Positions 21,213-48,133 of a DNA stretch of 64,000 bases are shown piece after piece. Positions within the stretch are counted from its first letter, which is position 1; each line of letters opens with the position of its first letter. The DNA comes from an uncultured Methanosarcinales archaeon. GTDB taxonomy: Archaea > Nanobdellota > Nanobdellia > Woesearchaeales > CAZKBD01. Below the pieces are notes generated by a model. The model saw only the letters and a program-made list of their open reading frames with translations, was not told where the DNA came from and made no database searches. The stretch is from assembly GCA_964550945.1 (NCBI GenBank), contig CAZKBD010000001.1, positions 289 to 64,288 of the forward strand, given 5' to 3'. The translations under genes and the position numbers were made by a program.

Positions 21213-21374
21213 ATGAGTGTCCAGATAAGGATAACCGTAAGCAAAGAAATTGATGAGCTTCTTTCTAAAGTAGCTAAAAAGCTTGGAAAAAAGAAGAGTA
21301 TGCTAGCCCGCGAACTGATGGAGCAAAAGATGTATGACCTGGAATTGATACAAAAAGGGCTAAAGGAAATATGA
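21213..21374 (+). CDS. Ribbon-helix-helix (CopG/Arc-like) small DNA-binding protein
   Basis: 53 aa: MSVQIRITVSKEIDELLSKVAKKLGKKKSMLARELMEQ... (beta-strand then two helices). The stop overlaps the ATG of the next gene (ATGA). Not in the ORF track because it is under 60 aa. Confidence 0.5.
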   Translation: MSVQIRITVSKEIDELLSKVAKKLGKKKSMLARELMEQKMYDLELIQKGLKEI

Positions 21375-23489: not shown

Positions 23490-26400
23490 ATGAAAAAAAC
23501 ACTAACACTAGCAATGATTTACCTAGTGTTGATGCTTCCTGCCTATGTTTCTAATGTTTATGCGATTGACCGCAATATTAATAGCAGTTTCATTGGTAAT
23601 GATGATATCACAACAGGGAATTTTGGCAAAGTTACATCTATATCTGCTGAAAAAGTTGCTTCTAAAAATGGCCAGATTCTGCTTTTAAGCGCAGTCATTA
23701 ACAATCTAGAAGCTTATGGGCAAGATGGGATTAATGGCTACTTGAAAGCAGATGATCAGCTTACAGTAAAAGTTACAGCAGCTATTGACAGCGAGCCAAT
23801 AAATGAAGGGCAGCTTAAGATTGGGAATGTTAACTTCACAAGCTGTGTCGCTGCAATGGAAGGCTATGACTGCATCTTAGTTGCGCCTGCAACCGGCACA
23901 AGAAGGTTTTCAGGCTCTAATGAGTTTGCAGTTAATCTGTATAATAATCAAAGCAGGATAGTTGCAAGCATTAATGCCAATGTCAGGGTTGATGATAAAA
24001 GCCCTTCAATTAGCTCGTTTGCTGCGTCGCCAAAAATAGGAAATGCTAACAATATACTGCTTAATTACGCTCTGGAAGATTATGATTTTAGTGGCAGCAC
24101 AGCTTATTGCTCTGGCTTGAAGCGCATTGAATTCTATGAGAATGATCTGGCAGGAAATCTGTCTGGCACAACAGAGCTTGACAGCTCATGCACGATAACT
24201 GGCAGCTATAACTATAGCGCTGCAAGCGATGGAGATAAAAAAATATGTGCTATTGTATATGATGGTTTTGAGCAAGTTTCTTCAGTTGCCTGTGATAGTT
24301 TTAAAGTTGATAGTATTGCGCCTGAGATTTCTGATATTGTGATCTCTGACTTAAACAGCAGCATAATAACCCATATTAAAGACAGGACAGATGCCATTGT
24401 GAATGCCACCATTATTGGGGCTGACATAAACCAAAGTTCAGTTAAAGCTGATTTAAGGTCTCTCAACAATGAAAGCGCATATTCTGATAAAGCGCCTGGT
24501 TTATTCATAAACAGCAACAATAGTTTGACTGCCCTCTGGAGAGTTTGGATAAGAGCCAATGCTGATATAACCCCTCAGATAACAGTTAATGCAGTTGACC
24601 TTGCTGGAAATAATATAACCAAGACCTCAACTTTAAACACACTGTATTATGATAATGTTGCTCCTGTTGTTAGCTCGCTAACTACCGATATAGCCTATAA
24701 TGGAAGCTATTATGTTATATCTGGCCTGAATAATTTTTATGCTGATATTGTTGAAGATGGCGCTGGATTAGCTGAAGCGGTATTGGATATTCAAGATAAT
24801 TCTGTGATTGGCAACTGCAGTAATAACAAATGTTACTGGGAAAATATAAGCATAAGCGCTGGAACTGGCAGCATAACAGCAAAAGTCAGGGCTAAAGACA
24901 AGCTGGATAATAGCGCAGCTGAGTTTAGCGCAACACTTTTTGCAGATACGATAAGCCCTGTTCTTATTAGCGTGAATATATCATCAATTAGCGGCGCAAA
25001 TGATACAAGCCCTGGCTTCACAGCAACAGGAGACAAGATTTATGTTGTTGCCAGCTTTAGCGATGCAAACGGCATCTCAAATGCATATGCTGATTTCTCT
25101 AGCTTTGTTTCAGGAGCTGACCATGTTGCTGCAGACAGCTGCAAGGATGTGGGAAGAACAAAGCAATGCACATGGACAACCAGCTCAATTGACATTTCTG
25201 GCCATATCATCAGCGATATTATTTTCAGTCCAGTCGATAACATTGGTAATGTAGCTGGTATAACCCATCCTTTTGAATCCCTTGGCTATGATGAGGATCC
25301 TAATCCTAATTACTGGGCAAGCTCTGTTATTTGCACTCCAATGATGGTTGACAGGCAGGTTTCTGCATTGACTAACAGCAAGGTGTACTGCCATATCGCA
25401 TTAAGAAGCGCAGCTAAAGAGGTTAGAACTGTTGAGCTTGGCCTTTTAGGCTGCCAGGATATGCAGAATAATTCTCTTGCTTATGTTAGCGCTATTAATC
25501 TGTTAAACGCAGGCAATGGCAGTAGAAATCCATACTTGATGGTTGTTTTGAGATCAGATCCAATGCGGATTTCTAATCTGCAGTTTACCTGCTCGTTAGG
25601 CATTTTCTCAAGAACTAATGACTTATTGACAAAATTCCCTGAATTTGAGAATGTTACTGTAAATATTCAATTCTATAATATGCCTTTAGGTGAGATAAGC
25701 GACAATATTAAAGACAAGATAAAAGACGCAAAAGATTTCTCCTTCCTTTTAGGTGATTGGGTCGGAACAATGCAGAATATTCTCGGCTATGGCGAGAAGA
25801 TATGCAAATTGATTAATACTATTATGAAGATATATGGCGCAGTTGGTGCTGTTGCCTGGGCATTGAGTGGTAAGGAAGTTATTCCTATCTTAGGAGAAGC
25901 TGTAACTACGCCAAGGCAAGCAGTACAAACTGCCCAATCTGGTATGGGCGCTTTGAGCAAAGAAGGCTGGCAGAAATATGTTAATCAGTTCTGCAAATTC
26001 TTTTCATGCAGATTATTTTATGATGAGATGTGGGGAATAGGAAATACTCCAATTGGACAGTCATTAGGAAAATGGCAGCATACGGTTCTAAACACAGCAG
26101 ACTGGATTGCAGTTGGCGGATTCTTAAAAGGTGGTGGCGGAGGAAAGAGTAGTAGTGGAGAGAATAGTGCAACTAATCAACCCACAATAGAAAGTATACC
26201 CATTGGTGAGGAAAAGGTAGACATAAAAGTAATTGATCCAGAAAATATTGATATTCCGACAGCAGAAGTTGTTGCAACAATTACCGGTGCTGATGGTGCC
26301 ACACCTCCACCAGAAGAGGCAAGACTACCTCAACCAGAAGAGGCAAGACTAGATCCCTCTGCTGCACCTTCAGGAAGCAGCGGCGTAAGCCATGGTTTGC

Positions 26401-26999
26401 TTGAAAGCATTGGAATTGGTGGCGAGTATGGGGTCCATGCATGGGCAAATTCAAGAACCGGTTATGAAACTGTCATCAAAGATGGCGGTGTGTTAAACCC
26501 AAAAGACAGCATTGTAATTAGCACTCTAACATTATGCATCCCAGGCATTATCTATAATCTAAACAAACTAAGGCAGATACAATGCATGTATATTGATTGC
26601 ATGCAGAATTATGTTCAACAAGGGCTGCCATTAAAAGCATGCGAAGACCAGAAGCATTATGCAACATGCAAATATTGGTGGGGAGAAATATTCCAGCTAT
26701 TGCCGTTTACCGGGCTTTTGAATTTCTTTACAGGAATGATCAAGAATGTCTTGTCAAGCCCGCTAAATATAGTTGACGCTGTTATGGGTTTAGCTTGCAT
26801 GCCTTCTATAAAGGTGCCAAAAGGAGGGGTTTTTGCAAGCGGCTGTTTAGCGAATGATATTGCAGGATTGATATTTGACATCTGGTCTGATTTGGAAGGC
26901 ATGTTCACTAAGGATTATTGGAAATTCAAAGGCGGAGATTATTGCAGCAGGATTGATGATGTCAGCAGTAAAAAAGATTCAAAAGAGAAAGAAAAGTAA
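23490..26999 (+). CDS. Giant secreted protein (1169 aa), module A gene 2: Ig-like array, internal hydrophobic helices, Gly-rich linker, conserved Cys-containing core
   Basis: Signal peptide MKKTLTLAMIYLVLMLPAYVSNVYA. C-terminal block CIPGIIYNLNKLRQIQCMYIDC...ACEDQKHYATCKYWWGEIFQLL is homologous to CISGIYNRLQAIKNILGALQACLIQV...VCKELFSQWVCSLIWKVL in the 2017-aa protein. Confidence 0.65.
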   Translation: MKKTLTLAMIYLVLMLPAYVSNVYAIDRNINSSFIGNDDITTGNFGKVTSISAEKVASKNGQILLLSAVINNLEAYGQDGINGYLKADDQLTVKVTAAIDSEPINEGQLKIGNVNFTSCVAAMEGYDCILVAPATGTRRFSGSNEFAVNLYNNQSRIVASINANVRVDDKSPSISSFAASPKIGNANNILLNYALEDYDFSGSTAYCSGLKRIEFYENDLAGNLSGTTELDSSCTITGSYNYSAASDGDKKICAIVYDGFEQVSSVACDSFKVDSIAPEISDIVISDLNSSIITHIKDRTDAIVNATIIGADINQSSVKADLRSLNNESAYSDKAPGLFINSNNSLTALWRVWIRANADITPQITVNAVDLAGNNITKTSTLNTLYYDNVAPVVSSLTTDIAYNGSYYVISGLNNFYADIVEDGAGLAEAVLDIQDNSVIGNCSNNKCYWENISISAGTGSITAKVRAKDKLDNSAAEFSATLFADTISPVLISVNISSISGANDTSPGFTATGDKIYVVASFSDANGISNAYADFSSFVSGADHVAADSCKDVGRTKQCTWTTSSIDISGHIISDIIFSPVDNIGNVAGITHPFESLGYDEDPNPNYWASSVICTPMMVDRQVSALTNSKVYCHIALRSAAKEVRTVELGLLGCQDMQNNSLAYVSAINLLNAGNGSRNPYLMVVLRSDPMRISNLQFTCSLGIFSRTNDLLTKFPEFENVTVNIQFYNMPLGEISDNIKDKIKDAKDFSFLLGDWVGTMQNILGYGEKICKLINTIMKIYGAVGAVAWALSGKEVIPILGEAVTTPRQAVQTAQSGMGALSKEGWQKYVNQFCKFFSCRLFYDEMWGIGNTPIGQSLGKWQHTVLNTADWIAVGGFLKGGGGGKSSSGENSATNQPTIESIPIGEEKVDIKVIDPENIDIPTAEVVATITGADGATPPPEEARLPQPEEARLDPSAAPSGSSGVSHGLLESIGIGGEYGVHAWANSRTGYETVIKDGGVLNPKDSIVISTLTLCIPGIIYNLNKLRQIQCMYIDCMQNYVQQGLPLKACEDQKHYATCKYWWGEIFQLLPFTGLLNFFTGMIKNVLSSPLNIVDAVMGLACMPSIKVPKGGVFASGCLANDIAGLIFDIWSDLEGMFTKDYWKFKGGDYCSRIDDVSSKKDSKEKEK

Positions 27000-31241: not shown

Positions 31242-34067
31242 ATGAAACACAAAAGATCACAATCACTCAGCTCAGGAATCTTGTTCATAGCTGTAGTCAT
31301 GGCCATCTTCACCTTTGCAATGTTCGAGTCTGAGAATATTACTGGAATGTCTGTTTCTGGAGATGTTAATTCTAATAGATTTAACCTTTATTTCAGCAGC
31401 AGCGACCCAATTAGTAAAGCTGGAGAAACGTATGGCACAGATAATAAAGTTAATGGTTATTTATTGCAGCAGGGTAATGAAAAGTATTGGTTAACCAATT
31501 CTATTCCTGATATAGGGTTTGCAGTTTTACACTGGAATAAAGAAAAGGGTAAGTGGGGTACTGGAACATTAAATTATGACAGAGTGGGCCCATTTAATAG
31601 TCAAATAGATTCCTATAAGACCTTAGAGGATTATGATGCTAATTCTGGTTATACTAAAGAGCCAATTCAGACTAAAGACACGTATGATAGCAGTAAGTAC
31701 GACCCTAATACAAAAGGAACGGTTCTTCCAAATTGGATTAAGGATGAGTCCCCAACACCACCACCTACGCCCACGCCTGCACCTGCTGCCGCGCCACCAG
31801 CTGCTGCTCCTGCTGTTGTATCTTGGACTGCTGGCACAGATCCTAGTACAGATGGTAACTTAAATGGGTGGGAATATAACTATAATCCTACTACAAAAAC
31901 CCAAGAAGTTGAGTATGAAGGTCAAAAGATGAGTGATATTAACATTCCAGAAGGAGCAATTGCTCGACAGAGACAGTCTGACGGGAGTTACAAATATACC
32001 CAATACAAAAGTGGAAACTGGGTTGATAGTAGTTCTACTCTTCCAACTCCAACTGCTACTGTTAGCACTAAAAGAATTACTGTGGCTAATATTAAATCAG
32101 TTGAAGGACAACAAGCGAACTGTGTTGAAGCTGTTAAGTGTGCAGCGCAAAACGCAGGCATATCTATTAAGGGAACAAAAGGGAGCACTATGTTTCCAGA
32201 AGTTGGAACCCAAGTAGCAGCTAGCTCTCCTAGCAGTTTAGATCTATCAAAATTAGATAAGTCGCAAGTGTACTATGCTGGTTTTGGGCAACCTTATACA
32301 GAAAGTACTACAAATCCAGATGGAATTGATGTTAGGCATACAGGATTAATTTATTGGGATGGTTCAACAAACCAATGGATGTGGTCGTCAGGAAGTGAGA
32401 ATAGCAAAGGTGAAAAAACTCAAGTTAAATCTGTACCTCTAACAGAATATGCCAACGGGTGGGTTAAGGGTTATGATTCAGCCTTTCCTAAAATAGCTAT
32501 CGACCCAAATAAAGCAAAATTTTATGTCTATGACCAATCAAAAGCGGGTAAACCTACAACAACCCCAGTCCCACCTACTGAAGAGAAAAAAACCATTGAA
32601 GAGATTGCAAAAGAGTTTGGTGCAACTATTGTCAAGCCAAAAGAAGGAGCCGCTGCTATTGGCCCTGGAGCAAAAGAGGAAAAACCACCTGAATCATACG
32701 TTGTTATACCCTTGTTAGATGGTAGCACAATGGTTGTGGATGAGAATAAATTTGATGAATTATGGGCTAATTTCGAAAAAAACGGTATAGATTCACTTAA
32801 GGTAATAAAGAATGAAAAATTCGCCATTCTTACCAAACAACAAGCTGATGCTTATCAGCGAGGAGGAATAATAAGTGAAAAGAATGGGCAAACCGTAGTC
32901 ACAGAAACCATTTCATCTTCAGCCAAAAAAACGCAAACTACAACTGAAACAATTTATTATACTGACCATGCAACAAGTGAAAAGGTCAAAACAACCTACA
33001 ACAAAAAGTTTGACAAATATGCACCGGAAGAATTAACAGGCAAAGGTGGAACGCCAATCGACACAGAAGTCACAGAAATACAAACAACACAAACAACATT
33101 GGATGCCAATAATCGAGTAACTTCTACATCAGTTGAAACAAAAAGAATGAAAGACGGCAAAGAAGTTGATTACACAAAAACAGAGGAAAGATCCCATTAC
33201 GATGAAAAAGGAAAGAAGGTGATTGATTCTAAAGCAGCTACAAAGATGGAAGATGGAGTAAAAGTTAAAACAGTTTACAGCCTAAAGGACGGAAGCCCTG
33301 AAGATGTTTTATTTTGGGATGAAACAAAGAAGCAATTTATTCATGATGAAAATCTGCTCAAAGCAAAGCAGCAAAACTACAAAGCTGGAACTAAATTGAA
33401 GAATGTTATGGCTGCTCTGCAAACTCCCGGAGTTGGGAGGTTTGTTGGATTATTCATGGATGATGACGCTTTTGCTGAATGGAGAGAAGGAGTTGATAAA
33501 ATCTTCTGCGAAACAGTGCTCCTAGGCGGAGCTGACTGCTGGACTTCAAAGCTATGCTCATCCTATTCTGACATGGAAGGTAAAAGCTATCTTAATATCC
33601 AGTCCCCATACGGGATGCTAGAGCTTGCTGCCCATATTGAAGGCCAAAGAACTTCCATGATTTATGGCAATGAAACTGGAATCCAGATGGAATACATCTA
33701 CAAGATATCAGCGATGGCCAGAAACCCTGCAAACAGCAATAAGGAGATGAAATTCAATATAGTCCTGTCTGGAGACAGGACAATAGAGCTTTATGAAAAT
33801 GACATCACTTTAGAAGAAGGAAATTCATTCCAAAGAACAGGCTCTGCAATAATTGTCCAGTACAGCCAGCATCTTTACAATAAGATATGCATCAAATTCC
33901 AGGATTCTATTGATGCTGGTGGAGGAAGATATTTCGATGAGGTTTGCAATAAGATCACTGAATATACAGGCGGGCCTATGAGTTATGAAGAAGCTGTAAC
34001 ACAAACCACTCAAAGCGGCGGTGATGGCTCTGATAACGGGCTGAACCAGGCAGAAAGGCTTATTTAG
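31242..34067 (+). CDS. Large surface protein (941 aa) carrying the same N-terminal TM leader, a Pro/Thr/Ala linker and a C-terminal Cys-containing domain
   Basis: MKHKRSQSLSSGILFIAVVMAIFTFAMFESENITG... then PTPPPTPTPAPAAAPPAAAP linker. TATA-like ATATATAAAT upstream. Confidence 0.65.
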   Translation: MKHKRSQSLSSGILFIAVVMAIFTFAMFESENITGMSVSGDVNSNRFNLYFSSSDPISKAGETYGTDNKVNGYLLQQGNEKYWLTNSIPDIGFAVLHWNKEKGKWGTGTLNYDRVGPFNSQIDSYKTLEDYDANSGYTKEPIQTKDTYDSSKYDPNTKGTVLPNWIKDESPTPPPTPTPAPAAAPPAAAPAVVSWTAGTDPSTDGNLNGWEYNYNPTTKTQEVEYEGQKMSDINIPEGAIARQRQSDGSYKYTQYKSGNWVDSSSTLPTPTATVSTKRITVANIKSVEGQQANCVEAVKCAAQNAGISIKGTKGSTMFPEVGTQVAASSPSSLDLSKLDKSQVYYAGFGQPYTESTTNPDGIDVRHTGLIYWDGSTNQWMWSSGSENSKGEKTQVKSVPLTEYANGWVKGYDSAFPKIAIDPNKAKFYVYDQSKAGKPTTTPVPPTEEKKTIEEIAKEFGATIVKPKEGAAAIGPGAKEEKPPESYVVIPLLDGSTMVVDENKFDELWANFEKNGIDSLKVIKNEKFAILTKQQADAYQRGGIISEKNGQTVVTETISSSAKKTQTTTETIYYTDHATSEKVKTTYNKKFDKYAPEELTGKGGTPIDTEVTEIQTTQTTLDANNRVTSTSVETKRMKDGKEVDYTKTEERSHYDEKGKKVIDSKAATKMEDGVKVKTVYSLKDGSPEDVLFWDETKKQFIHDENLLKAKQQNYKAGTKLKNVMAALQTPGVGRFVGLFMDDDAFAEWREGVDKIFCETVLLGGADCWTSKLCSSYSDMEGKSYLNIQSPYGMLELAAHIEGQRTSMIYGNETGIQMEYIYKISAMARNPANSNKEMKFNIVLSGDRTIELYENDITLEEGNSFQRTGSAIIVQYSQHLYNKICIKFQDSIDAGGGRYFDEVCNKITEYTGGPMSYEEAVTQTTQSGGDGSDNGLNQAERLI
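31260..31330 (+). repeat. 71-nt leader core repeat, copy inside the 941-aa gene 5' end
   Basis: 68/71 identical to copies 1 and 2. Confidence 0.85.
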
Positions 34068-34828: not shown

Positions 34829-35246
34829 GGATATCTGCAATGCATTGATCATAGATGCAAGAGAGGATTTAAAGGCAGCTAAAGTTTTGATGGAAAAAGG
34901 AATTTTCAGCAAATCTGTCTTTCATTCACAGCAGGCCGTTGAGAAATTCTTAAAGTCAGTATTAGCCTTAAACAGCATAATAATCACTGATGAGCATAAA
35001 GTTTCTGATAAGTTCAGCTTGTTATTTTCAAGATTCAATAGCCTGGATAAGGTCGCTGAAGAAGCTAAATACTTGGAAAGGCACGGCCTGAAATCACGCT
35101 ATCCTTTGTTTGGCGACCCAATAAGGCCAATATGGATCCCAAGCGAAGAATACAAAAAAGAAGATTCGGAAAAGTCGCTTAAAAAAGCTAGATTTGTGGA
35201 AGAAAAAATAATTAACTTTTTAAAGGAAAAATACAATATTCAATAA
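34812..35246 (+). CDS. HEPN-domain partner protein
   Basis: Helical. DICNALIIDAREDLKAAKVLMEKGIFSKSVFHSQQAVEKFLK is typical of a HEPN N-terminal helix pair. The start is uncertain: the ORF track starts at 34713 inside the MNT gene, and a TTG at 34812 is proposed. Confidence 0.5.
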   Translation: MQSKYRDICNALIIDAREDLKAAKVLMEKGIFSKSVFHSQQAVEKFLKSVLALNSIIITDEHKVSDKFSLLFSRFNSLDKVAEEAKYLERHGLKSRYPLFGDPIRPIWIPSEEYKKEDSEKSLKKARFVEEKIINFLKEKYNIQ

Positions 35247-35416: not shown

Positions 35417-37318
35417 ATGTTTAACAAGAAAGCTCAACTGACTATTTTCATAATTATTGGCTTAATAATTTTAATTGCAATAGGCGCATATCTTTACTAC
35501 AATAGCCTGGCAATAGGGGAGCCTGAGATATCAACAGAAGAGACAGAGCCAGTAAGGAGTTTTGTTGAGCAATGCATTAAAGATGCTGCGCAGGAAGCTA
35601 TTGATACTGTTGGCTTTAACGGAGGCTATATCACGCTACCGGAAAATATCGAAAAAAACCCTAAAAGTTACTTAAAAATATCTCCACTAGTTGATGTAAA
35701 GCTCCCTTACTGGTGGTATGATGGGGTTATGTCTATCCCTACAGCAGATTTTATAAGAAGCCAGATATCGCAATATGTCAAAGACCAGTTAAAGATTTGC
35801 GTTGCTGATTTTGAAAGTTTCGAAGACGAATTCAGCGTAAGGGAATTAGGAGAGATAACAGCCTCAACACAATTTGACAAGAATGATGTGGCTGTTAAAG
35901 TAAAATATCCCTTATTAGTAAATAATAAGGTAGGCGACACAAGAGTGAAGCTAAAATCAGATTATAATGTTAAGGTGCCAGTAAGGCTGGAAACAGTATA
36001 CAACCTTGCAAAGATGATTATGGAAACAGAAGACTCAGAATGGTTTTTAGAGGAAAAAACTGTTGATCTGATGGCTTTAGATGGCTCTATCCCATTGACT
36101 GGTGTTGAGGTCACTTGCTCAAAAAAGATATGGGAAGTGCCAAAAGTAAGGAGTAAACTAAAAAGATTGTTAGAAGTAAACCTTCCTTATATAAGGATCA
36201 AAAACACAGGCTATGATGAAAATATTTATGTCCCAAACCCTTTTTCAAAAACAGAGGTGTTCAATGAAAGCTATTATTTCTACCATTATATCTGGGATGT
36301 TAAAGCATTGGAAGACAAAAACATTCACATCAGCTTTAGCTATGATCAAAACTGGCCAATGGAGTTCTATGCAAGGCCAAGCAATGGCCAGATAATGAAA
36401 TCAAATGCCCAGAAAGGCCAGGAGATGCTTTCATGGTTCTGCCTGCATATATGGCATTTTACCTATGACGTAAAATATCCTGCCATGGCAACCATCACAG
36501 ATGAGAAAACAGAAGAGCATGACAGCTATACTTTTAGTTTTCCTTTTAAGGTAAACATAGACCATAACAAGCCAGCAAGATACAATTCCGGCTCAAATAT
36601 CCTGGAAGGAACAGAGAAATTGACAGATGAGGAATTCTGCAGCGACACCAGCCATCAGATCACAATATTCACAGTAAGCAATAGCTCAAAAGCAATTGAG
36701 GATATTGCTGATGTTAACTTGACGTTTGTATGCGGAGCATTCCAATGCGATTTAGGCGCAAGCAAATGGATAAGCTTTGGAGCGGCAGCTGGCTTGCAAA
36801 AACCAATGCCCTATTGCGTTTTAGGGATTATAAAAGGAACAAAGAAAGGCTATGCAGATGCTCAGATGTTCATACAGGCAGAAGAGGACAAAAGTTATAC
36901 CCTCCATATGGCTCCTATAAAAGAGCTATATAATTACACTGTTGTAAAACATTCCTCATTAAGCCCTGCAGCAGCGCAAAATCTTGAAAGTGATGAAAGG
37001 GCATTAATCATGATAAAAACTCCGCTTGGCAACACATACGGCCTTTATCCAAACAATGAAAGCTCTCCAATTATATTATCAGCTGAAGAAGATAAGGCCT
37101 ATGATGTGGATATTTATTTAATAAGCGGCGAAGATATAATTGGAGGCTATAAGGCGCAATGGAGTGTAAACTCAAAAGAGCTTGACAAGGCAAAATCAGC
37201 AAGGTTCCATGTCATAGAGCAGGAGCCCAGGCAGACAGATGAGATGAAAAGATATGAATATATTGCTGAGATCGAAAAGCATTCAGAGCAAATACCATCA
37301 ACAGAGTTGATAAGATGA
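35417..37318 (+). CDS. TM-anchored surface protein (633 aa), module B gene 1
   Basis: MFNKKAQLTIFIIIGLIILIAIGAY anchor. AAGAGG RBS. Paralog of 21371..23488. Confidence 0.65.
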   Translation: MFNKKAQLTIFIIIGLIILIAIGAYLYYNSLAIGEPEISTEETEPVRSFVEQCIKDAAQEAIDTVGFNGGYITLPENIEKNPKSYLKISPLVDVKLPYWWYDGVMSIPTADFIRSQISQYVKDQLKICVADFESFEDEFSVRELGEITASTQFDKNDVAVKVKYPLLVNNKVGDTRVKLKSDYNVKVPVRLETVYNLAKMIMETEDSEWFLEEKTVDLMALDGSIPLTGVEVTCSKKIWEVPKVRSKLKRLLEVNLPYIRIKNTGYDENIYVPNPFSKTEVFNESYYFYHYIWDVKALEDKNIHISFSYDQNWPMEFYARPSNGQIMKSNAQKGQEMLSWFCLHIWHFTYDVKYPAMATITDEKTEEHDSYTFSFPFKVNIDHNKPARYNSGSNILEGTEKLTDEEFCSDTSHQITIFTVSNSSKAIEDIADVNLTFVCGAFQCDLGASKWISFGAAAGLQKPMPYCVLGIIKGTKKGYADAQMFIQAEEDKSYTLHMAPIKELYNYTVVKHSSLSPAAAQNLESDERALIMIKTPLGNTYGLYPNNESSPIILSAEEDKAYDVDIYLISGEDIIGGYKAQWSVNSKELDKAKSARFHVIEQEPRQTDEMKRYEYIAEIEKHSEQIPSTELIR

Positions 37319-40300
37319 GAGAAGCTTGGATTCAACTAACTGCATTATTGATAATAGAGCTAATGCTATTGCTTCCTATATCGTTTGTTGATGCCCTTAC
37401 AATAAATTCTGTCAGGGTGCGCGATTTTAACGATAAAAATGCTACAATTGAATGGACAACAGATGTAGAAAGCGACAGCAGAGTCAGCTATGGAAAAACA
37501 ACAGCTCTAGGTCTTTTAGAAACTAGCTATGAAAAGTTAAGAGCTCATGTTGTAAAGCTGGCCAATCTGGAAGGCAACACATTATATTATTTCAGCGCAA
37601 TATCAAGCGACGGCACTGATACAATCACCGAAGATAACAACGGCAATTTTTACAGTTTCACGACAAAAGCAGACATCACAAAGCCATTCATTAAAGTAAT
37701 CCTTCCAAGATATTACACCAGCTATGAGATTGACATTGATGGAGAGGTTGAGCCAGGATCCAAGGTCATGCTTTATGTGAATGACATGAGCGGGTCTGCA
37801 AGAACGATGGATAACATTGAAACAGCGGATGGGAAATTCTCTTTCAGCAAAGTAAGGCTGCAGGCAAATAACAAGATAAGGATATACGCAAAAGACTCAG
37901 CTGGAAATGAAAACCAGGTTGATTCTGATATTACTGTAGATATTAACGCGCCTATCCTCACATTAGACAAGCTGCCGAAATATGCATTCACGAGAAACGC
38001 CACATTAAAAGGAAGTGTTAGTGAGCAGTCTTTAGTCAATGTCTACATGACAAGAACCTCTGCAGATACAAATCCGCCAGCAAAAGTTAATGGCTTAAAA
38101 TTAACAGATATAGGCAGTAATTTAGTAGAGCTTGAATGGGATGCGAATAATGAGCAGGATTTTGAGCAGTACGTCATTTACAGGAATGATATTGGCCCAA
38201 TAGCCACTGCTCGGCCTTCAAGCTACACCAATCTTGTTGATGTAAAAGTAAAAACCAATACAGAATACATTTATCAGATTAGTGCAATAGACAGGTCAGG
38301 AAATGAAGGAGAGAAATCCGATCCATTGGTTGTCAAAACTTTAGAAGGGGGAAATCCTGACACAATTATGCCCCGAGCAATCAATCTTAGCGAGAGGGTT
38401 GAAACTGGCTTGGTTGAAAAATTAAATGTTACTGGCGCATTCTTAATCAATTTAAGGTTTGATAAGGGAGATGGCATCTATCATATAAAAGTAGAATCCA
38501 AAGACAGTTCAGGAAATGCCGCTTTCCTTGAAGACAGCATTACTTTAGATACAAAACCTCCTAAAATCAAGATATCATCTCCAAGAACCCATACAAGAAT
38601 CTATGAGAATTTTGCAGATGATGTGACAATAGAAGGAGAGACAGAGCCAAATGCAAAAGTTGATTTGTGGGTGCAGAGGACTCCTTTAGGCTATCTAAAC
38701 AAGAGTGTTGAGGTTAGCGGCTTATTAAATGATATTGAAGAGTTAGACGAGTCAAGATTAAGGGCTGACTGCAGATTTGCAGTATCAAGCGGAAATTATT
38801 GCGATACAGGAGCAGATTTCTCAACAACTGCTGATGAGAATGGCTATTTCAGGGTTGAGCATGTTGACCTGACATCTATTTTCGGAGGAGCTATAGATAT
38901 TACAATGGTGCCTCCTGGAGACCGCTATGTAAACGATTACATGAACCGCCATTATAACCAATTCGGCCAGATTGCTGTTCCTGTTGAAAGTGACGTATTT
39001 ATTATGGTTACTGAAGAAAGCGGCCAAAGAGCTGCTGAAATTGCTAATTATGGCATTGTAACTTGCTGGTCTGGCAATATGACTTATGATATTGTTCCGA
39101 TAAATGACTACCAAAGCCCCACTTTCTTAAGCACAGAAAGGATTGCAGAAGGAACTGAAACAATTTATTTCTTGCTGAATTTCAGTTATAGGGGTTATGG
39201 AACAAATGCCATAGTAAACAGCGTTTCCTTCAGCAAGGCTTGTGATGATTATATAAGGAATGCTGACCAAAAATATAATGTTAGCTGCCAGATAATGCCT
39301 TCTGGCTGCATTGCAAAATCAAATCAAGAAAGAACAACATGGTATGTTGCCTGCCATCTAGGCGCATACAAGGATTTCAATAGGTTCCTTAAAGACGACT
39401 GGAAAGAATTTATGAAATCAATAAACAATGAGATGGTGTTCCCATTCCAGATAAGGTTGACTTATACGCATGAGATTGAAGGCAAAAAGGTTTCTGAAGT
39501 GCAGACAATGTGCGAGCCTGTTACTTATGTTGTCGATAACTCAAAAATAAATTTTAAGGAAGTGCTTCCTGACTGGCTTTTATACGATGCTGTAAATTGG
39601 ATAAATGATACAATCACAACCTTAGATAAGGTGATGGAGAAGATTTATCTTGTATTAGAGTATGTTGCAATCGGCTGTGTTGCTTCTTTTGTGATCAAAT
39701 TTGTATTGACTGTTTACAGAAGATTCCAGTGCTACTGGGATGGTTTCCAGGATTCTGTCAAAAAACTTGTTGACACTAAAGGAGATAGGCAAGCGTCAGA
39801 GCAGGCTTGCCCATTTGGTGAAAAGAAAGTAGGCATTGGCTGGGAACAGCAGCAAAACACATTAACAAATGCAGAGCTAAAATTAGATTGCGACAAATGC
39901 GCTGCTGCATGGGAGATTGAAGCTAAATTATACACAACTTACAGGTGGCTTTGCGACAGAGTATTCTGCCACAGCGCTCCTGCAAAATGGACTCAAGATA
40001 CCGAAGATCTTCAGCTGGAACAGAAAGCACTTGAAGAGACAAAGCAATGCGGCGATGTTGAAGATAAATCACTATTCGGGCAGACTTTAATCGAAGCTAA
40101 GTGTAGTGGCTTTAAAGAAGATTATTTGCAGCAAGATGTCATCAACGATGAAGGAGCAGCAAATAAATGTTATAGAGCTTCAGTCAAACAAGGCAGTATA
40201 GAAGAGCGCCTTGTTTTTGTAAAAACAAAGGAGCAAACAGGAAGTTCAGATAAGTATTACAAGTTCACAGTTGTTTCTGCTCAATCACAAACTATTGGAA

Positions 40301-43300
40301 GAAGTGGTAATATATGGGCAAGAGAGATAGGGGATAGATATTACACAGCAAGAGCAGAAACTTGCGAAGAACTATGCAAACAAAAAGGAGATGTTGCTTA
40401 TAGCTGCGGAAATTCTCAGGCATGCATTGATTTAGGAAGCAATGTTGATGCTGAGAGAAGCAAAGAGAGAGAAACAGCATTTAAAGCACTTGGTACTGTA
40501 AAATCTGTTCCAAAACAGGTTCCAACTAAGGAATTCGAATTTAATGCTAATATGAACTATGGCACAGCGCGCTATGGATATACCTCTGACTGTGTCTTTG
40601 GCAATGAAGGAGCTGATGCAGTAAAAACTGATCCTCAACAAACAGGAACAACATTAAGCGAAACAAAAGAATGCTGTTGCATTGGCAAAGGAACTGCAAG
40701 CCAGACAGGAAAGTATTACCTCTTCAAAGAATCAAGCAGCAGCAAAGCTTGCGCAGAAGGTAAAAGAATAGATTCTGAATTATGCGAGGTCTTCGATGAA
40801 GTTGAACCCGGAACTACTGATTATCCTGCATTTGACTACCGTTATTATCATATAAAATACAAGACAAAAGATGAGAGTAATCAATACAACCCTTATAGGT
40901 ATGTCTCTGGCAGGGATTTGCCAGCTTGTTTTGGATTCAATAGTTTCTTTACATCAGGAAAAAAATTAATGAACAATCCTGCAAAAGACCATTGGGCAGC
41001 ATTCCAATGCTTATGCATAAGCGGCATTTACAATAGGTTGCAGGCAATAAAAAATATCCTTGGCGCTTTGCAGGCCTGCCTTATACAGGTAAGGACAACT
41101 GGAACTGCTGATGCAGGCGTTTGCAAAGAATTATTTTCTCAATGGGTTTGTTCTCTAATCTGGAAAGTGCTTGTTACATTTAAGGATGGCTGCATGCCTT
41201 GGGACAGCTGGGGCAAGGATGACAATGCTCAGATTAGTGATGTGCAAGCATTCATGCAAGGCGGCACCCAAGCTTTAGTTGGCGGTGTTGGCGAGTCATT
41301 AAATGAAATAACTGAGGAATATGGAGGGACAGTTGCCACAAATTTATTAGGTGAAAGTGAAGAAGCTGTTGCAAGAAAAGTATGCTTGGCTGCATTCGGC
41401 TATGATTGGGAGCTTAGCATGGAAGATGTCATTGATGTCGCTTACCAAACGCCTTTTGCAACCTTGGTGCAGCCTGTCTTGCCATTTAGAGAATATCTGA
41501 CATTTGATCCATTCAACGGCTATTCAAGCTATGAATACAGGACTTCATGGCTGATTAATCCTGGCTGTGATTTTGATGATTATGACATCTATTTAAGCTG
41601 CGTCTCAAATAACGAGCTTTATGGAGACGATAAAAGGAAAGGATATAGTGGCGTTGACTGCACTAAGCAAGGTGATCCAGAAGGCAGCAATTGCGATTGC
41701 CTTGGCCTAGATAGAGAACAAGTAAGGAAGTTCTATGATGGAAAAAGATTAAAGCAGAATGTTTTGGAAAACAAGGATTATCACGAAGTTATCCAGGCTC
41801 CATACAGATTTGATCATCTCAAGTTTGTATTAAGGACTAGCAGGAATATTAAAGGTGATATTGCTAAAAATTGCTTCCCAGACGGCCATGATGATGGAAT
41901 ATTCTATTTCCCAATCAAAGACAGGACAGCGCAAGATATTGCTGCCTGCTATGTTGATGCATCTGGCGGAACATTCAAATGCGTCTCAGGAGACGTCTTC
42001 TTTGGCCAGAAAGGCAACTCATACATACAAGGTGTTAAGCTTGTTAATGAAAAAAATGATGTCCAAGCAAATGAAAACCAAGAAACGCAATTCACAAGAG
42101 GCCAACCTTTAGATATAAAGCCAACAGTCTGGAGATCATCAGGCAAAGACCAATGCATGAGGATTGTTTTAGAGTCAGCTTTTGAATCTCGCGTTGATAA
42201 AGTGTTAGCTATTGATGTGGACGGCTTGCATGAATATGGGCCTATCCAGCTAGTTCCTAATCTCGAAATCGCGCGTTCAAGGTTAGGCGTGCCTCAAGGA
42301 GTTACTGCATCCATAGTAACCTCTGAAAATGTAAAGGAAGTCCGTTGGTCAGTCAAGTTTGAAGATGGGGGCAATGATGGAGATTTTATTATAAGCACTA
42401 CATCCCCAGACATGCTTGGAATAGATAATAAACATCAACAATTGACTAAGTGGTTCGAAGAACAAAATAAAGAACAAAATCCAAATGTCTACATACAAGA
42501 TGGGGCTATTTTCATGAAACAAAACGACGAACAAGGTAAACTGGTTACCATCAAGATTACCGGAGTGCAACTTCCAAAATCAACTGAAAAATCAACTGAA
42601 GGAATTGTAAGCAAAGTAGGCGCAATCAGCGATAATATTGTGGTAGCAGCTCCTGGAGATTTCTCTGAATTAAAAACGCTGACAGTAGAATTGTTCCATA
42701 TGAGAGACCTTAGCGAGCAGCAGTATTACAGCAGCTTTGAGGACTGCAACCTGAATGATCCTGTTACCTACCAGAATGATATCCAAAAGAAAGTTTACAA
42801 GATAAGGGTTGTTCCAAAACCTTCTGACACAACTACTGAAGGCAAGATTACTTCTCCTGCGCAAAGGCAGGCTGCAACTGCAGCTCAAGACAAGGAGTTA
42901 GTTACCACACCCACAGTTATCAGGCAACAGCTAATAAACTATTTCAACGAAAAGGTTACTAAAAATCCAACATTGCAAGCGCAAGCTGGGAAATTTTTTG
43001 ATTTAGGAGGAATATATGGAGTTGACCCTGCTTTTGCTGCTGCTGTCGCAATGCTTGAAAGTGCCTATGGTGCAAGTGATATTGCTCTTAACAAATACAA
43101 TTACTTTGGGATAACCGCCGGCGGAGAAGGCGGGGGCTATAAATCATATGGTTCAGCAGAAGAGGGGATAGACGCGTTTTATCGCCTAATAAAAAACGAT
43201 TATATCAACTGTGGACAAGATACAATAAATGAGATTGCAACAGGTACAGGTTATATCAAAAGTGACAACTGTAAATCAGATAACCATGCTTATGTAGGCG

Positions 43301-43368
43301 ATTCAGGAAGAACCAGTTGGCTTACTAACATACCTGCAATCAGAACACAAATTCAAAACCAAAAGTGA
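37315..43368 (+). CDS. Giant secreted protein (2017 aa), module B gene 2: Fn3/Ig-like domains, internal hydrophobic helix, conserved Cys core, C-terminal glucosaminidase (FlgJ-like lysozyme family) domain
   Basis: Signal peptide. Fn3-like blocks (IEWTTDVESDSRVSYGKT..., LVELEWDANNEQDFEQYVIYRN...SAIDRSGNEG). C-terminus AAAVAMLESAYGASDIALNKYNYFGITAGGEGGGYKSYGSAEEGIDAFYRLI matches the glucosaminidase motif (ALESGWG...NNLFGIK). ATGA overlap with the preceding gene. Confidence 0.7.
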   Translation: MREAWIQLTALLIIELMLLLPISFVDALTINSVRVRDFNDKNATIEWTTDVESDSRVSYGKTTALGLLETSYEKLRAHVVKLANLEGNTLYYFSAISSDGTDTITEDNNGNFYSFTTKADITKPFIKVILPRYYTSYEIDIDGEVEPGSKVMLYVNDMSGSARTMDNIETADGKFSFSKVRLQANNKIRIYAKDSAGNENQVDSDITVDINAPILTLDKLPKYAFTRNATLKGSVSEQSLVNVYMTRTSADTNPPAKVNGLKLTDIGSNLVELEWDANNEQDFEQYVIYRNDIGPIATARPSSYTNLVDVKVKTNTEYIYQISAIDRSGNEGEKSDPLVVKTLEGGNPDTIMPRAINLSERVETGLVEKLNVTGAFLINLRFDKGDGIYHIKVESKDSSGNAAFLEDSITLDTKPPKIKISSPRTHTRIYENFADDVTIEGETEPNAKVDLWVQRTPLGYLNKSVEVSGLLNDIEELDESRLRADCRFAVSSGNYCDTGADFSTTADENGYFRVEHVDLTSIFGGAIDITMVPPGDRYVNDYMNRHYNQFGQIAVPVESDVFIMVTEESGQRAAEIANYGIVTCWSGNMTYDIVPINDYQSPTFLSTERIAEGTETIYFLLNFSYRGYGTNAIVNSVSFSKACDDYIRNADQKYNVSCQIMPSGCIAKSNQERTTWYVACHLGAYKDFNRFLKDDWKEFMKSINNEMVFPFQIRLTYTHEIEGKKVSEVQTMCEPVTYVVDNSKINFKEVLPDWLLYDAVNWINDTITTLDKVMEKIYLVLEYVAIGCVASFVIKFVLTVYRRFQCYWDGFQDSVKKLVDTKGDRQASEQACPFGEKKVGIGWEQQQNTLTNAELKLDCDKCAAAWEIEAKLYTTYRWLCDRVFCHSAPAKWTQDTEDLQLEQKALEETKQCGDVEDKSLFGQTLIEAKCSGFKEDYLQQDVINDEGAANKCYRASVKQGSIEERLVFVKTKEQTGSSDKYYKFTVVSAQSQTIGRSGNIWAREIGDRYYTARAETCEELCKQKGDVAYSCGNSQACIDLGSNVDAERSKERETAFKALGTVKSVPKQVPTKEFEFNANMNYGTARYGYTSDCVFGNEGADAVKTDPQQTGTTLSETKECCCIGKGTASQTGKYYLFKESSSSKACAEGKRIDSELCEVFDEVEPGTTDYPAFDYRYYHIKYKTKDESNQYNPYRYVSGRDLPACFGFNSFFTSGKKLMNNPAKDHWAAFQCLCISGIYNRLQAIKNILGALQACLIQVRTTGTADAGVCKELFSQWVCSLIWKVLVTFKDGCMPWDSWGKDDNAQISDVQAFMQGGTQALVGGVGESLNEITEEYGGTVATNLLGESEEAVARKVCLAAFGYDWELSMEDVIDVAYQTPFATLVQPVLPFREYLTFDPFNGYSSYEYRTSWLINPGCDFDDYDIYLSCVSNNELYGDDKRKGYSGVDCTKQGDPEGSNCDCLGLDREQVRKFYDGKRLKQNVLENKDYHEVIQAPYRFDHLKFVLRTSRNIKGDIAKNCFPDGHDDGIFYFPIKDRTAQDIAACYVDASGGTFKCVSGDVFFGQKGNSYIQGVKLVNEKNDVQANENQETQFTRGQPLDIKPTVWRSSGKDQCMRIVLESAFESRVDKVLAIDVDGLHEYGPIQLVPNLEIARSRLGVPQGVTASIVTSENVKEVRWSVKFEDGGNDGDFIISTTSPDMLGIDNKHQQLTKWFEEQNKEQNPNVYIQDGAIFMKQNDEQGKLVTIKITGVQLPKSTEKSTEGIVSKVGAISDNIVVAAPGDFSELKTLTVELFHMRDLSEQQYYSSFEDCNLNDPVTYQNDIQKKVYKIRVVPKPSDTTTEGKITSPAQRQAATAAQDKELVTTPTVIRQQLINYFNEKVTKNPTLQAQAGKFFDLGGIYGVDPAFAAAVAMLESAYGASDIALNKYNYFGITAGGEGGGYKSYGSAEEGIDAFYRLIKNDYINCGQDTINEIATGTGYIKSDNCKSDNHAYVGDSGRTSWLTNIPAIRTQIQNQK

Positions 43369-43387
43369 GTATCTTAGTTAAAATACA

Positions 43388-44191
43388 ATGAAAAACCCAA
43401 TAACCTCATCAATAAAAGAAACATTCACGTTGATCAACAAGCACAGGAATCTCTTTGCTTTGCTGTTTATCCTGCAGTTTGTGTTTATTGTTTTAATGTT
43501 CTATGTCAATATTTATTATCAGATGAAGATAATGGATAGTGCTACAATAATTATTGACACATTAGACAAGCAGCAATTAACAGATGAGGATGTTGCTAAG
43601 AATTTCCTGCAGCAGGGAGACTTAATCCAGGATTCTTTTGAACTTTATAATGCTTCTCAAGAGGTTATAAAGAATGTGGGTGTTTTAGTGGCCATTAGCA
43701 TGATTATATACATTCTATTAGGGGGCCTTCTATGGGCTTTGACTGATCAGCTAATCAACAAAAAGAAGCTAAATCAGTTTTTCATTTACATTGGAAGATT
43801 TGCTGCAATAACTATTGTGTACAGCCTTATTGTATTCATCATTTTAATGCAGGCAGGCAGCGGATTAAAAGAAGAGCTGTCATTTAATTACTTCTGGCTT
43901 GTTTTGATTGTTATACCTTTTTATTTTATCTTCATCTCTTATGCTTTAGCCAGCAAGCTAAAATTAAAAGACTTGGCAAAACAAACCTTCTTGATTGGAA
44001 TTAAAAAAGCTCATTATATATTGTTAGTATACTTCATAAATATAGTAATTTTGTGCTTGTTAGGATTGATTATGTACCTTCTACTGGAAAGGACTATCCT
44101 GCTATTGACGATAGCAATGATATTATTTATTTTGTGTTATACCTGGACAAGGTTGTTTTTGGCCGTGGTTGTTGAAAGCATAAGAAATTGA
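43388..44191 (+). CDS. Polytopic membrane protein of unknown function
   Basis: At least six predicted TM helices. Follows the giant gene by 20 nt. Confidence 0.5.
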   Translation: MKNPITSSIKETFTLINKHRNLFALLFILQFVFIVLMFYVNIYYQMKIMDSATIIIDTLDKQQLTDEDVAKNFLQQGDLIQDSFELYNASQEVIKNVGVLVAISMIIYILLGGLLWALTDQLINKKKLNQFFIYIGRFAAITIVYSLIVFIILMQAGSGLKEELSFNYFWLVLIVIPFYFIFISYALASKLKLKDLAKQTFLIGIKKAHYILLVYFINIVILCLLGLIMYLLLERTILLLTIAMILFILCYTWTRLFLAVVVESIRN

Positions 44192-44365
44192 TTAAACTTT
44201 CAGTACGTTCAATCCTTCTATTCTGCTAAAATGGTTTATATTTTCGGTTATTAGAAATCTCTGATTTCTAAAAGGCTGGTGGTATATTTCTGACATATAA
44301 ATTATGTAACAACTAGTATAGGCAGCGAAAAGTATATAAGTTAAGGGGCATTATTTGTTTATACA

Positions 44366-44560
44366 ATGACAGAAGTCACCCTTGAAAAAATTAATGAGAA
44401 CATCCTGGTATTAAAGAAAGAACTAGATTATATTAAAGAAATATTAGAAGAGTCTGAGTTCGAGTTAACAGATGAAGTAAAAGAACAAATAGATGAATCT
44501 AGGAATAGGCCTGTCTCTGAATTCAAAACTCAAAAAGAAATAGAAAAGAATTTCTTATGA
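44366..44560 (+). CDS. Small helical protein, putative antitoxin of the RelE/ParE-like toxin
   Basis: 64 aa, acidic. Stop overlaps the toxin start (ATGA). Confidence 0.4.
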   Translation: MTEVTLEKINENILVLKKELDYIKEILEESEFELTDEVKEQIDESRNRPVSEFKTQKEIEKNFL

Positions 44561-44814
44561 AATACGAGGTTCTTTACGACCCTAAATCAGAAAAGCAACT
44601 AGATAAATTACCTAGGAATACTGCTGTAAGGATAATTAAAAAGATGAGAGAAGTGGGAGACACAGGCAGAGGGATTGAGACATTAAAAGATGAGAACTAC
44701 AAATATAAGGTTAGGGTAGGAAATTATCGAGTTCTAATAGACATAACCAATAATCCAAGTAGGATATGGGTAAGATATGTGGATCACAGGAGCAGGATAT
44801 ATAAGCGGTTTTGA
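44557..44814 (+). CDS. RelE/ParE-family toxin
   Basis: YKYKVRVGNYRVLIDITNNPSRIWVRYVDHRSRIY matches the RelE/ParE core (YKLRVGDYRVIY...HRKD.Y). Confidence 0.65.
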   Translation: MKYEVLYDPKSEKQLDKLPRNTAVRIIKKMREVGDTGRGIETLKDENYKYKVRVGNYRVLIDITNNPSRIWVRYVDHRSRIYKRF

Positions 44815-47907: not shown

Positions 47908-47927
47908 ATGTGAGTTGTCAAGAACCG

Positions 47928-48030
47928 CCGCCCTGAAGGGCAGGGTGTGTTCTTGAGCACACTCAGAAACCGCCCTCTTGCCATAAGCTGAAGCAAAGGG
48001 ATTGCGAGTGGCGGTTTCTGATGTTTCAAA
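47928..48030. other. GC-rich structured element (nested inverted repeats) between ispG and a convergent gene
   Basis: gccctgaagggc hairpin. gtgtgttc/gagcacac stem. 12-bp perfect IR tcagaaaccgcc...ggcggtttctga with ~35-nt spacer. GC content far above the local background. Confidence 0.35.
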
Positions 48031-48133
48031 ATGGAGCATTATTAATAATCTAACTCATCACTATTGCTTTTTTCTTTTTATTCAAAGGCTAGGTAACTAA
48101 TGGATCAAATAGTTATGTTAATTCTCTAACAGA

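Follow-up and report, generated by a model that had tools for sequence, protein, structure and literature searches.

What would an archaeon, which has no murein, do with a murein hydrolase joined to the end of a giant protein? The question is raised by a stretch of 64,000 nt (hereafter the window) of contig CAZKBD010000001.1, assembly GCA_964550945.1, deposited as an uncultured Methanosarcinales archaeon and placed by GTDB among the Woesearchaeales. In this window an uninterrupted open reading frame (ORF), the first 4 nt of which are shared with the end of the gene upstream, encodes a protein of 2017 aa, for which a first-pass annotation had proposed a C-terminal glucosaminidase domain. We confirm the last ∼150 aa as a genuine GH73 N-acetylglucosaminidase domain, and we consider it reasonably probable that this module, mounted on a surface scaffold, belongs to a device with which the archaeon locally breaches or holds on to the wall of a bacterium, be it partner or prey, where the two cells touch. 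Coordinates of the features discussed are collected in Table 1.

The peptide quoted in the first-pass annotation, GGIYGVDPAFAAAVAMLESAYGASDIALNKYNYFGITAGGEGGGYKSYGSAEEGIDAFYRLIKNDY, is found in the C-terminus of the 2017-aa ORF (37315..43368), and the proposed family match is significant: PF01832 (Glucosaminidase) matches aa 1899-1964 at 41.3 bits when the whole protein is scanned, at 45.4 bits on the last 142 aa and at 43.6 bits on the extracted tail, all above the Pfam gathering cut-off of 30.2 bits. The C-terminal position given for the domain stands, while its start, given as 42990, needs correction, as the structural start lies ∼25 residues earlier at aa 1868 (nt 42916). A word-indexed homologue search with the module returned a single weak match only, and an exhaustive search was needed; phmmer against 1.84 billion cluster representatives recovered 556 relatives at E<=1e-3, the best with 46% identity (1.5e-30), and all nine close relatives that we scanned match PF01832. 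Among PDB sequences, phmmer matched the phage cell-wall hydrolase 8yxk and pneumococcal LytB (4q2w and 7pj3). A profile of 18 close domains matched solved GH73 enzymes over the whole domain (8yxk at 1.3e-25 and LytB 4q2w at 2.8e-24), as well as Atl 6fxo (2.7e-18), AtlE 4pi7 (4e-18) and, further, Acp, SagB, Auto 3fi7 and FlgJ 3vwo/2zyc. The AlphaFold2 model of the module (mean predicted local distance difference test score, pLDDT, 95.1; predicted template modelling score, pTM, 0.91) has an alpha-helical lysozyme-like fold that superposes on the catalytic domains of solved GH73 enzymes, and the top ∼19 Foldseek matches of this model in the PDB are all GH73 glucosaminidases (best E 2.7e-7), the best of them with template modelling (TM) scores, normalised to the query, of 0.65-0.74. 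Every sequence or structure criterion for GH73 membership that gave a clear outcome places the protein in the family.

Fold and conserved Glu, Tyr and Trp are common to the module and the solved comparators, namely Streptococcus pneumoniae LytB, Staphylococcus aureus Atl/AtlE/SagB, the Clostridioides difficile phage endolysin Ecd09610, Listeria Auto, and FlgJ (profile E 1e-25 to 1e-5; TM ∼0.65-0.74), yet sequence identity to them is just ∼16-24%. Unlike bacterial GH73 enzymes, the module is the terminal part of a protein built on a non-bacterial scaffold of 1838 aa in an archaeon, and this protein has no LysM, SH3, choline-binding or flagellar rod-binding partner domain. Elsewhere, the nearest GH73 relatives frequently occur in large proteins that also contain another hydrolase (Amidase_2, Amidase_3 or M15_4).

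Within the 18-domain alignment, Glu1915, Gly1919, Asn1929, Tyr1963, Tyr1993 and Trp2002 are invariant. The first-pass annotation had named the Glu of an LES motif as catalytic, and this residue, Glu1915, is indeed conserved and aligns with LytB E585: in the phmmer alignments to PDB sequences, MLES of the window stands opposite LES of LytB, and the motif reads LQS in 7pj4, titled as the E585Q catalytic mutant, in which this very Glu is replaced. Glu1915 thus occupies the place of the general acid of GH73 enzymes, in the (L/H)E(S/T) motif with which a helix ends. Tyr1993 and Trp2002 align with LytB EYA...YW. These are the aromatics of the C-terminal groove, the Tyr of the YA(T)D-like motif followed by Trp, and they have a functional role according to mutagenesis studies of GH73 enzymes. 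The module is probably enzymatically active.

The host of the fusion is a Woesearchaeota (DPANN) archaeon. The genome had been described as archaeal-looking, which is borne out by S13e/S15P with an archaeo-eukaryotic N-domain (PF08069), TrmB and DUF116 in the window, and by a scaffold-alignment search of GTDB species representatives, in which 79 of 79 scaffold loci fall in archaeal metagenome-assembled genomes (MAGs). The titles of these loci are mostly Woesearchaeota, Nanoarchaeota or Nanoarchaeia, the rest being “uncultured Methanosarcinales”; this last title, which stands on L003, L005, L007, L009 and many others, is apparently a placeholder or mislabel of bulk-binned MAGs. Directly downstream of the gene cluster that contains the scaffold gene, the window carries a complete bacterial-type methylerythritol phosphate (MEP) isoprenoid operon (44978-54790). 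The combination of archaeal markers with bacterial-type MEP genes is already documented in Woesearchaeota, where Castelle et al. (2021) described 52 genomes that form one monophyletic clade and whose MEP genes are co-located (PMC8204110). The window also encodes a homologue of Lgt, the bacterial prolipoprotein diacylglyceryl transferase (14353-15192, − strand; PF01790, E 6e-28), in what is an archaeal genome.

The scaffold–GH73 fusion is likewise real. Window positions 42289-44595 recur at 99.9-100% identity in five contigs assembled independently from groundwater metagenomes, one of which runs from the scaffold end through the linker and the GH73 module to down267, the gene that follows. The fragment P0021, which covers aa 1-274 only and not the junction, does not count as further independent support. 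A chimeric assembly or a bacterial contaminant contig might be suspected from the MAG origin of the contig and its bacterial-type MEP and Lgt genes; given a junction reproduced in five assemblies, a GC content that is even across the whole window, archaeal markers on the same contig and an MEP operon that is a documented trait of a Woesearchaeota clade (PMC8204110), we consider such an artefact extremely improbable.

The first ∼1838 aa of the protein form a Cys-rich, presumably secreted scaffold that is spread Woesearchaeota-wide, with 79 loci in species-representative genomes, and it is the comparison of these loci that gives the GH73 module its context. A first homologue search returned eleven full-length relatives only, none of them annotated with PF01832, and BLAST mapping of the eleven showed a common core with divergent tails. 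In dozens of loci the scaffold homology ends at aa ∼1838. We took 63 complete tails from the 79 genome loci, scanned them with Pfam, and also searched every ORF of the loci with seed sequences. A recognisable hydrolase is present in 9 of 64 complete tails (∼14%), each of a cell-wall-hydrolase class: GH73 in the window only, SLT in L007, SLT and VanY together in L063, VanY in L028, L049 and L052, Amidase_2 in L016, DUF2272 (NlpC/P60-like) in L068, and a lambda-lysozyme-like module in L074 (identical to P0007). Counting the double tail of L063, VanY thus occurs in four tails and SLT in two. The lambda-lysozyme-like domain was not detected in a Pfam scan of the P0007 tail, and was instead found by phmmer against the PDB, which matched lambda lysozyme (1am7 and 3d3d at 8e-9) with AWAEG aligned to AWSEG of lambda; in L076, a lambda-lysozyme-like module is encoded, unfused, by the next gene. 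DUF2272 has been placed in the NlpC/P60-CHAP-amidase group together with the peptidoglycan amidase Tse1 of the type VI secretion system (T6SS) in a survey of papain-like enzymes (PMC10318531). Jointly, the tail enzymes cover glycan cleavage, N-acetylmuramic acid (MurNAc)-L-Ala amidase and stem-peptide peptidases. A check for alternative C-terminal enzymes in related giant proteins had been proposed with the first-pass annotation; they are there, in the form of other murein hydrolases, and on this comparison the scaffold C-terminus is a swap site for unrelated murein hydrolases.

Two further proteins, P0046 (2838 aa) and P0060 (2619 aa), combine a close relative of the GH73 module with the most conserved segment of the core (query aa 1233-1384), which argues for a wider superfamily of proteins built as core plus murein hydrolase; P0046 has been named MepM/NlpD-like by the Joint Genome Institute. 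Several other tails deserve mention. The L063 protein (2697-9962) has SLT (2.4e-13) and VanY/M15 (7.8e-9) in tandem, that is, a glycan-cutting and a peptide-cutting enzyme in one protein. At the end of the L046 protein (9974-16852; tail 14771-16852), a Hint/Vint-like match (E 9e-6, under the Pfam cut-off) breaks off after ∼75 residues, perhaps because a self-cleaving module is truncated there or because a longer tail is frameshifted. No known domain is present in the other tails, of which the commonest (27 of 64; L002, L003, L008 and 24 others) ends in the conserved Cys-rich motif C..YG.C......C..G.I.....C....(Y/F)(K/Q)CC(K/R) and gives no Pfam or PDB match. Sequence searches of the PDB with the unannotated tails of L048, L053 and L035, and with the DUF2272 tail of L068, returned no matches.

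The sister tails bear directly on the target of the enzyme, for which the first-pass annotation had offered two options, attack on or attachment to bacterial cells, and remodelling of pseudomurein. The substrates of VanY (D-Ala-D-Ala) and of Amidase_2 (MurNAc-L-Ala) occur in murein and not in pseudomurein, which has neither MurNAc nor D-amino acids. Because enzymes for these murein-specific bonds occur in sister tails, the probable target is bacterial peptidoglycan and not pseudomurein, so that the first option gains support and the second is disfavoured. The same substrate argument applies to a self-directed autolysin that would remodel a murein-like or pseudomurein wall of the archaeon itself. 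Bacterial GH73 enzymes are classically autolysins (LytB, Atl, AtlE and FlgJ), and this Woesearchaeota clade has taken up other bacterial pathways, as seen in the MEP operon and the Lgt homologue. Yet no mur or pseudomurein genes are present in the window, and a hydrolase is found in just that ∼14% of scaffold orthologues and varies in type by genome, whereas a housekeeping autolysin would be conserved. Since archaeal peptidoglycan hydrolases (PGHs) are, moreover, almost absent from pseudomurein-making lineages (Strock et al., PMC12352652), we regard an autolysin as very improbable.

The scaffold itself has a marked two-part organization. It begins with a hydrophobic segment, an equivalent of which is present in 10 of the 10 homologues examined by Kyte-Doolittle scan, and we infer that the signal is cleaved after LLLPISFVDA. 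The following part (aa 29-765) gives weak Pfam matches to Big_13/Big_6/Pur_ac_phosph_N (FN3/Ig-like) and is presumed to be a glycosylated stalk. An internal hydrophobic helix (aa 779-797), which falls within a ∼53-residue helix of a low-confidence model, forms the border between a sequon-rich and a sequon-free half: all nine N-x-S/T sequons of the window protein precede it, and the 1217 aa after it have none, against an expectation of 7.3 (P∼0.0006). The pattern is that of the family. In 67 family proteins, sequons number 841 in the N-terminal part (604 expected) and 63 in the C-terminal part with hydrolase tails included (560 expected), a depletion of ∼9-fold, as compared to 30 sequons (31.8 expected) in the cytoplasmic enzymes of the window, which serve as a baseline. 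This suggests that the C-terminal half is under strong selection to stay unglycosylated. The conserved core (aa ∼800-1650) contains ∼20 invariant Cys and is followed by a beta-rich region to aa ∼1838; because of these Cys and the depletion of sequons, we infer that the C-terminal part lies outside the cell. Sequons are apparently depleted also in up941, a neighbouring gene product (31242-34067; 2 against 8.9 expected).

No known fold was assigned to aa 800-1838, in which sequons number 0. An AlphaFold2 model of the scaffold core (aa 766-1700; 24 sequences) is of low confidence (pLDDT 60, pTM 0.42), and its Foldseek search against the PDB gave nothing significant (best E 4e-3, TM <= 0.1, generic beta-sandwiches); we have drawn no conclusion on the scaffold fold from it.

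Like the scaffold, its gene neighbourhood is conserved. Six genes follow the order p705 - p1169 - up941 - up633 - scaffold - down267, which is compact in L035. The two pilin-like members, up633 and p705, start with K(K)RG-Q-(I/A/V)-(T/S/A)-(I/V)-F and have homologues at 60+ loci; we take this N-terminus to resemble the class III (type IV pilin-like) archaeal prepilin signal peptide. The polytopic membrane protein down267 is kept irrespective of tail type (49 loci). A third large pilin-like protein, p994 (994 aa; 15387-18371), has the shared start K-[GAS]-Q-[LI]-T-[IV]-F-I-I-[LI]-G. Searches of p705, p1169, up941, up633, down267 and p994 against Pfam and PHROGs gave no family matches, and genes for a pilus ATPase or a prepilin peptidase were not seen in the window. 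Here, the cluster is broken up by three nucleotidyltransferase genes (27179-31075 and 34136-35246) and by a gene for a YhcG/DUF1016 PDDEXK nuclease (28244-29203). Of the nucleotidyltransferase genes, the last (34136-34828) has a Pfam-confirmed HEPN gene as its partner, while the first two have small unassigned neighbours (27706-28113 and 29334-29858). Close homologues of the 34136-35246 pair (53% and 72% identity) lie upstream of the scaffold gene in L006.

Could the giant protein instead belong to a provirus or mobile element, as a virion or transfer-apparatus protein with a penetration lysin? In a set of 50,697 phage records, it is best matched by tail lysins and tape-measure proteins of Bacillus phages (for example, Zuko, Belinda and HonestAbe), which likewise hold a muralytic domain within a large structural protein for local wall penetration; PHROG endolysin families match the GH73 domain, the cluster is interrupted by the nucleotidyltransferase/HEPN cassettes and YhcG-type nuclease, and signal peptides are lacking in several large proteins among the nearest GH73 relatives. 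The phage match amounts to just 36% identity over 66 aa, however, and the scaffold family was not found in a scaffold-alignment scan of 2.9 million IMG/VR contigs, nor does any cluster partner match a PHROG. The cluster occurs in the same order at 60+ Woesearchaeota species-representative loci and adjoins, in the window, the housekeeping MEP operon, and none of capsid, terminase or integrase was seen. We therefore hold a viral or mobile origin to be most unlikely.

In the mechanism that we favour, the protein would be exported by means of its N-terminal signal and then stay on the archaeal surface or be shed from it, the FN3/Ig-like N-terminal part would become glycosylated, and the Cys-rich, sequon-free C-terminal part would hold the enzyme outside the archaeal cell, with the ∼29-residue flexible linker tethering the module to the scaffold end. 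The enzyme would then cleave the beta-1,4 bonds between N-acetylglucosamine and MurNAc (GlcNAc-beta-1,4-MurNAc) in bacterial peptidoglycan. A swap site with murein hydrolases, together with pilin-like and membrane partners, points to a surface device at cell–cell contact; contact is favoured by the large conserved scaffold, these partners, the lack of wall-binding domains and the matches to phage tail lysins. Alternatively, the enzyme or a fragment released from it could degrade peptidoglycan at a distance, in bulk bacteriolysis or necromass scavenging that feeds a metabolically poor archaeon. The enzymology would be identical, proteolytic release is possible at the flexible linker, and one relative has the Hint-like end described above, a type of domain tied to self-cleavage. 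The literature, in addition, credits Woesearchaeota with a limited metabolism and a possible part in the recycling of cell material (PMC9723730). Yet a conserved scaffold of 1838 aa with pilin-like and membrane partners and no wall-binding domains fits a diffusible enzyme poorly, and the phage proteins most like it are tail lysins attached to the virion, not free endolysins; we consider scavenging unlikely, if worth keeping in mind.

Several observations weigh against a contact device for breaching or gripping bacterial walls. A hydrolase is recognisable in just 9 of the 64 tails and the commonest tail (27 loci) is a Cys-rich knot, so that the core function of the scaffold need not be wall lysis. 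The internal helix and the RR that follows it (aa 779-802) could be a stop-transfer anchor in a type I topology, which would leave the C-terminal 1200 aa, enzyme included, in the cytoplasm; the depletion of sequons and the invariant Cys argue against this topology. We know of no bacterial host for any Woesearchaeote. Some GH73 clusters have a second catalytic carboxylate on a beta-hairpin, and the candidate for it here, hairpin Glu1938 (AGGEGGG), is conserved in just 11 of the 18 close relatives. Finally, Pfam gives no LysM, SH3, PG_binding or similar wall-binding match in the protein or in 65 tails. The last two points would also suit adhesion only, in which the GH73 module would hold peptidoglycan while turning over little or none of it and would tether the archaeon to bacteria, and attachment is a role that Castelle et al. 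also propose for large transglycosylase proteins (PMC8204110). Pure adhesion is nevertheless improbable in our view, as invariant Glu1915, Tyr1993 and Trp2002 would be unexpected of a degenerate binding module, and as sister tails that are diverse enzymes acting on different bonds fit degradation better than binding.

Compared to what has been published, the window protein adds to a known phenomenon, since large DPANN murein hydrolases and archaeal peptidoglycan hydrolases have been described. Castelle et al. reported a Woesearchaeota and Pacearchaeota protein family, fam00969, whose members reach 3,000 aa, contain a domain of the murein lytic transglycosylase type and are proposed to bind or degrade bacterial walls, as noted earlier in three DPANN genomes; the AR20 protein is cited there as a large murein-transglycosylase protein (PMC8204110). 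Vigneron et al. (2022) reported large GH23 transglycosylases in Woesearchaeota and proposed a predatory, “vampiristic” lifestyle (PMC9723730). The window protein has a scaffold with relatives only in DPANN MAGs, and it shares with these proteins its lineage, very large size, predicted secretion, a domain of a kind that cleaves murein glycan, and proposed role. In a comparison made by description only, it differs from fam00969, which is defined by SLT/GH23, in having GH73 and no SLT match, and SLT occurs in just 2 of 64 tails of its scaffold family (L007 and L063). Strock et al. (2025) found modular PGHs in ∼5% of archaeal genomes, with especial diversity in Nanoarchaeota, and reported that peptidoglycan hydrolases of Halogranum salarium kill a bacterium, one of the PGHs of this archaeon being a PF01832 protein (PMC12352652). 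That protein, Danwoldo, is like the window protein an archaeal, secreted PF01832 protein presumed to act on bacterial murein (PMC12352652); it is, however, described as a glucosaminidase secreted by twin-arginine translocation with two PG_binding_1 domains, as opposed to a fusion to a scaffold in a protein of 2017 aa. The survey definition of Strock et al. combines a catalytic domain, which the window protein has, with a recognised wall-binding domain, and as it has none of the latter, it falls outside that definition (PMC12352652). In light of these reports (PMC8204110, PMC9723730 and PMC12352652), the first-pass judgement that such a protein is unusual whatever its role was overstated.

Two further systems offer instructive parallels. 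As in polymorphic toxins, a conserved N-terminal region meets interchangeable C-terminal enzymes at a sharp, fixed junction (aa ∼1838), and the DUF2272 tail of L068 is related to the T6SS amidase Tse1 (PMC10318531). Unlike in polymorphic toxins, there is no tail-specific immunity gene, as down267 is conserved whatever the tail type; none would be expected of a producer without murein. Known markers of secretion systems are absent. Archaeovorins, the giants of predatory Omnitrophota, are surface proteins of ultrasmall cells with wall-degrading domains and are proposed to act on the wall of another organism (preprint 10.1101/2023.11.21.568195). They are bacterial, exceed 10,000 aa, have different domains and are proposed to act on archaeal prey, so that they are a conceptual mirror image of the window protein and not homologues.

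Table 1. Positions in the window of the giant protein gene, its parts and active-site residues, the conserved gene cluster and the adjoining MEP operon
Feature	Position	Strand	Remarks
Gene for giant, presumably secreted protein (scaffold, linker and GH73 module)	37315..43368	+	2017 aa; uninterrupted ORF
N-terminal hydrophobic signal/anchor segment, aa 1-28	37315..37398	+	...LLLPISFVDA/LT; Kyte-Doolittle scan, consensus
N-terminal part with FN3/Ig-like domains, aa 29-765	37399..39609	+	all 9 sequons; weak Pfam matches
Internal hydrophobic helix, aa 779-797	39649..39705	+	LVLEYVAIGCVASFVIKFV; invariant Cys788, then YRRF
Cys-rich conserved scaffold core and beta-rich pre-tail region, aa 800-1838	39712..42828	+	
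Low-complexity linker, aa 1839-1867	42829..42915	+	TTTEGKITSPAQRQAATAAQDKELVTTPT; at module swap junction
GH73/PF01832 N-acetylglucosaminidase module, aa 1868-2017	42916..43365	+	
Glu1915	43057..43059	+	GAA codon; predicted catalytic general acid (MLES)
Tyr1993	43291..43293	+	HAY; invariant in subfamily; aligns with Tyr of LytB EYA
Trp2002	43318-43320	+	invariant in subfamily
p705, pilin-like paralogue of up633	21371..23488	+	first gene of cluster; 705 aa; MKKGKKG/QITVFIILG
p1169, secreted, sequon-rich, Cys-containing cluster member	23490..26999	+	27 loci
up941, secreted/anchored	31242..34067	+	C-terminal ∼200 aa conserved in cluster; 38 loci
up633, large type IV pilin-like upstream partner	35417..37318	+	633 aa; K-A-Q-L-T-I-F-I-I-I-G; 64 loci
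down267, polytopic membrane protein, downstream partner	43388..44191	+	∼6 transmembrane segments; 49 loci
Dxs (MEP operon)	44978-46867		
IspG (MEP operon)	46864-47907		
Dxr (MEP operon)	49471-50601		
IspDF (MEP operon)	50942-52093		
IspE (MEP operon)	52095-52946		
IspH (MEP operon)	52897-53736		
Polyprenyl synthase	53729-54790		end of MEP operon
GGR-like FAD reductase	54807-55850	−	adjoins MEP operon

Elsewhere in the window, a small ORF inside the MEP operon (50577-50939, + strand) has a weak match to PilZ (E 2e-4, 22.0 bits against a cut-off of 22.5), and a domain that binds cyclic di-GMP would be odd in an archaeal isoprenoid operon. Two Cys-rich paralogues (10004-11212 and 19775-20893, both − strand) have 22 and 20 Cys, respectively, weak matches to Dicty_CTDC repeats and similar N-termini, ..IKQ(Y/Q)L(E/D)(Q/R)G(Y/F)DI(D/N)SIR(A/E)HLI.., the second adjoining an ABC-2 transporter pair (18364-19796, − strand). 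Scans of the window for tRNA genes and Rfam families found nothing.

As far as the literature that we searched goes, three elements have not been described before: the mounting of a GH73 module on this scaffold; the occupation of one and the same junction, in a lineage-wide scaffold, by at least six types of murein hydrolase unrelated to each other; and the pilin-like cluster context with its two-part sequon signature. The confident GH73 assignment adds to the large murein-degrading proteins of Woesearchaeota, which in the papers cited had hitherto been of the SLT/GH23 kind (PMC8204110 and PMC9723730). The convergence of at least six hydrolase types at one junction is hard to explain unless the substrate is bacterial walls, and it agrees with the earlier proposal that these archaea attack bacteria or attach to them. 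Most DPANN archaea are without a known host, and some Woesearchaeota may live on bacteria instead of on archaea. The isolated module of 150 aa is small, confidently predicted and easily expressed, which makes the central claim directly testable, and new antibacterial enzymes might be drawn from the range of tail modules.

More tentatively, and as a possibility that we would not ourselves call likely, the six genes (two for large pilin-like proteins, two for further secreted proteins, and one each for the giant scaffold and the polytopic membrane protein) may encode an undescribed archaeal organelle for contact-dependent breaching of bacterial walls, with a glycosylated stalk, a disulfide-rich penetrating half and a host-matched hydrolase. 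If this is true, the interchangeable hydrolase would match the peptidoglycan chemistry of the bacterial host of each lineage, and the type of tail could predict the hosts of Woesearchaeota, giving a genomic handle on them.

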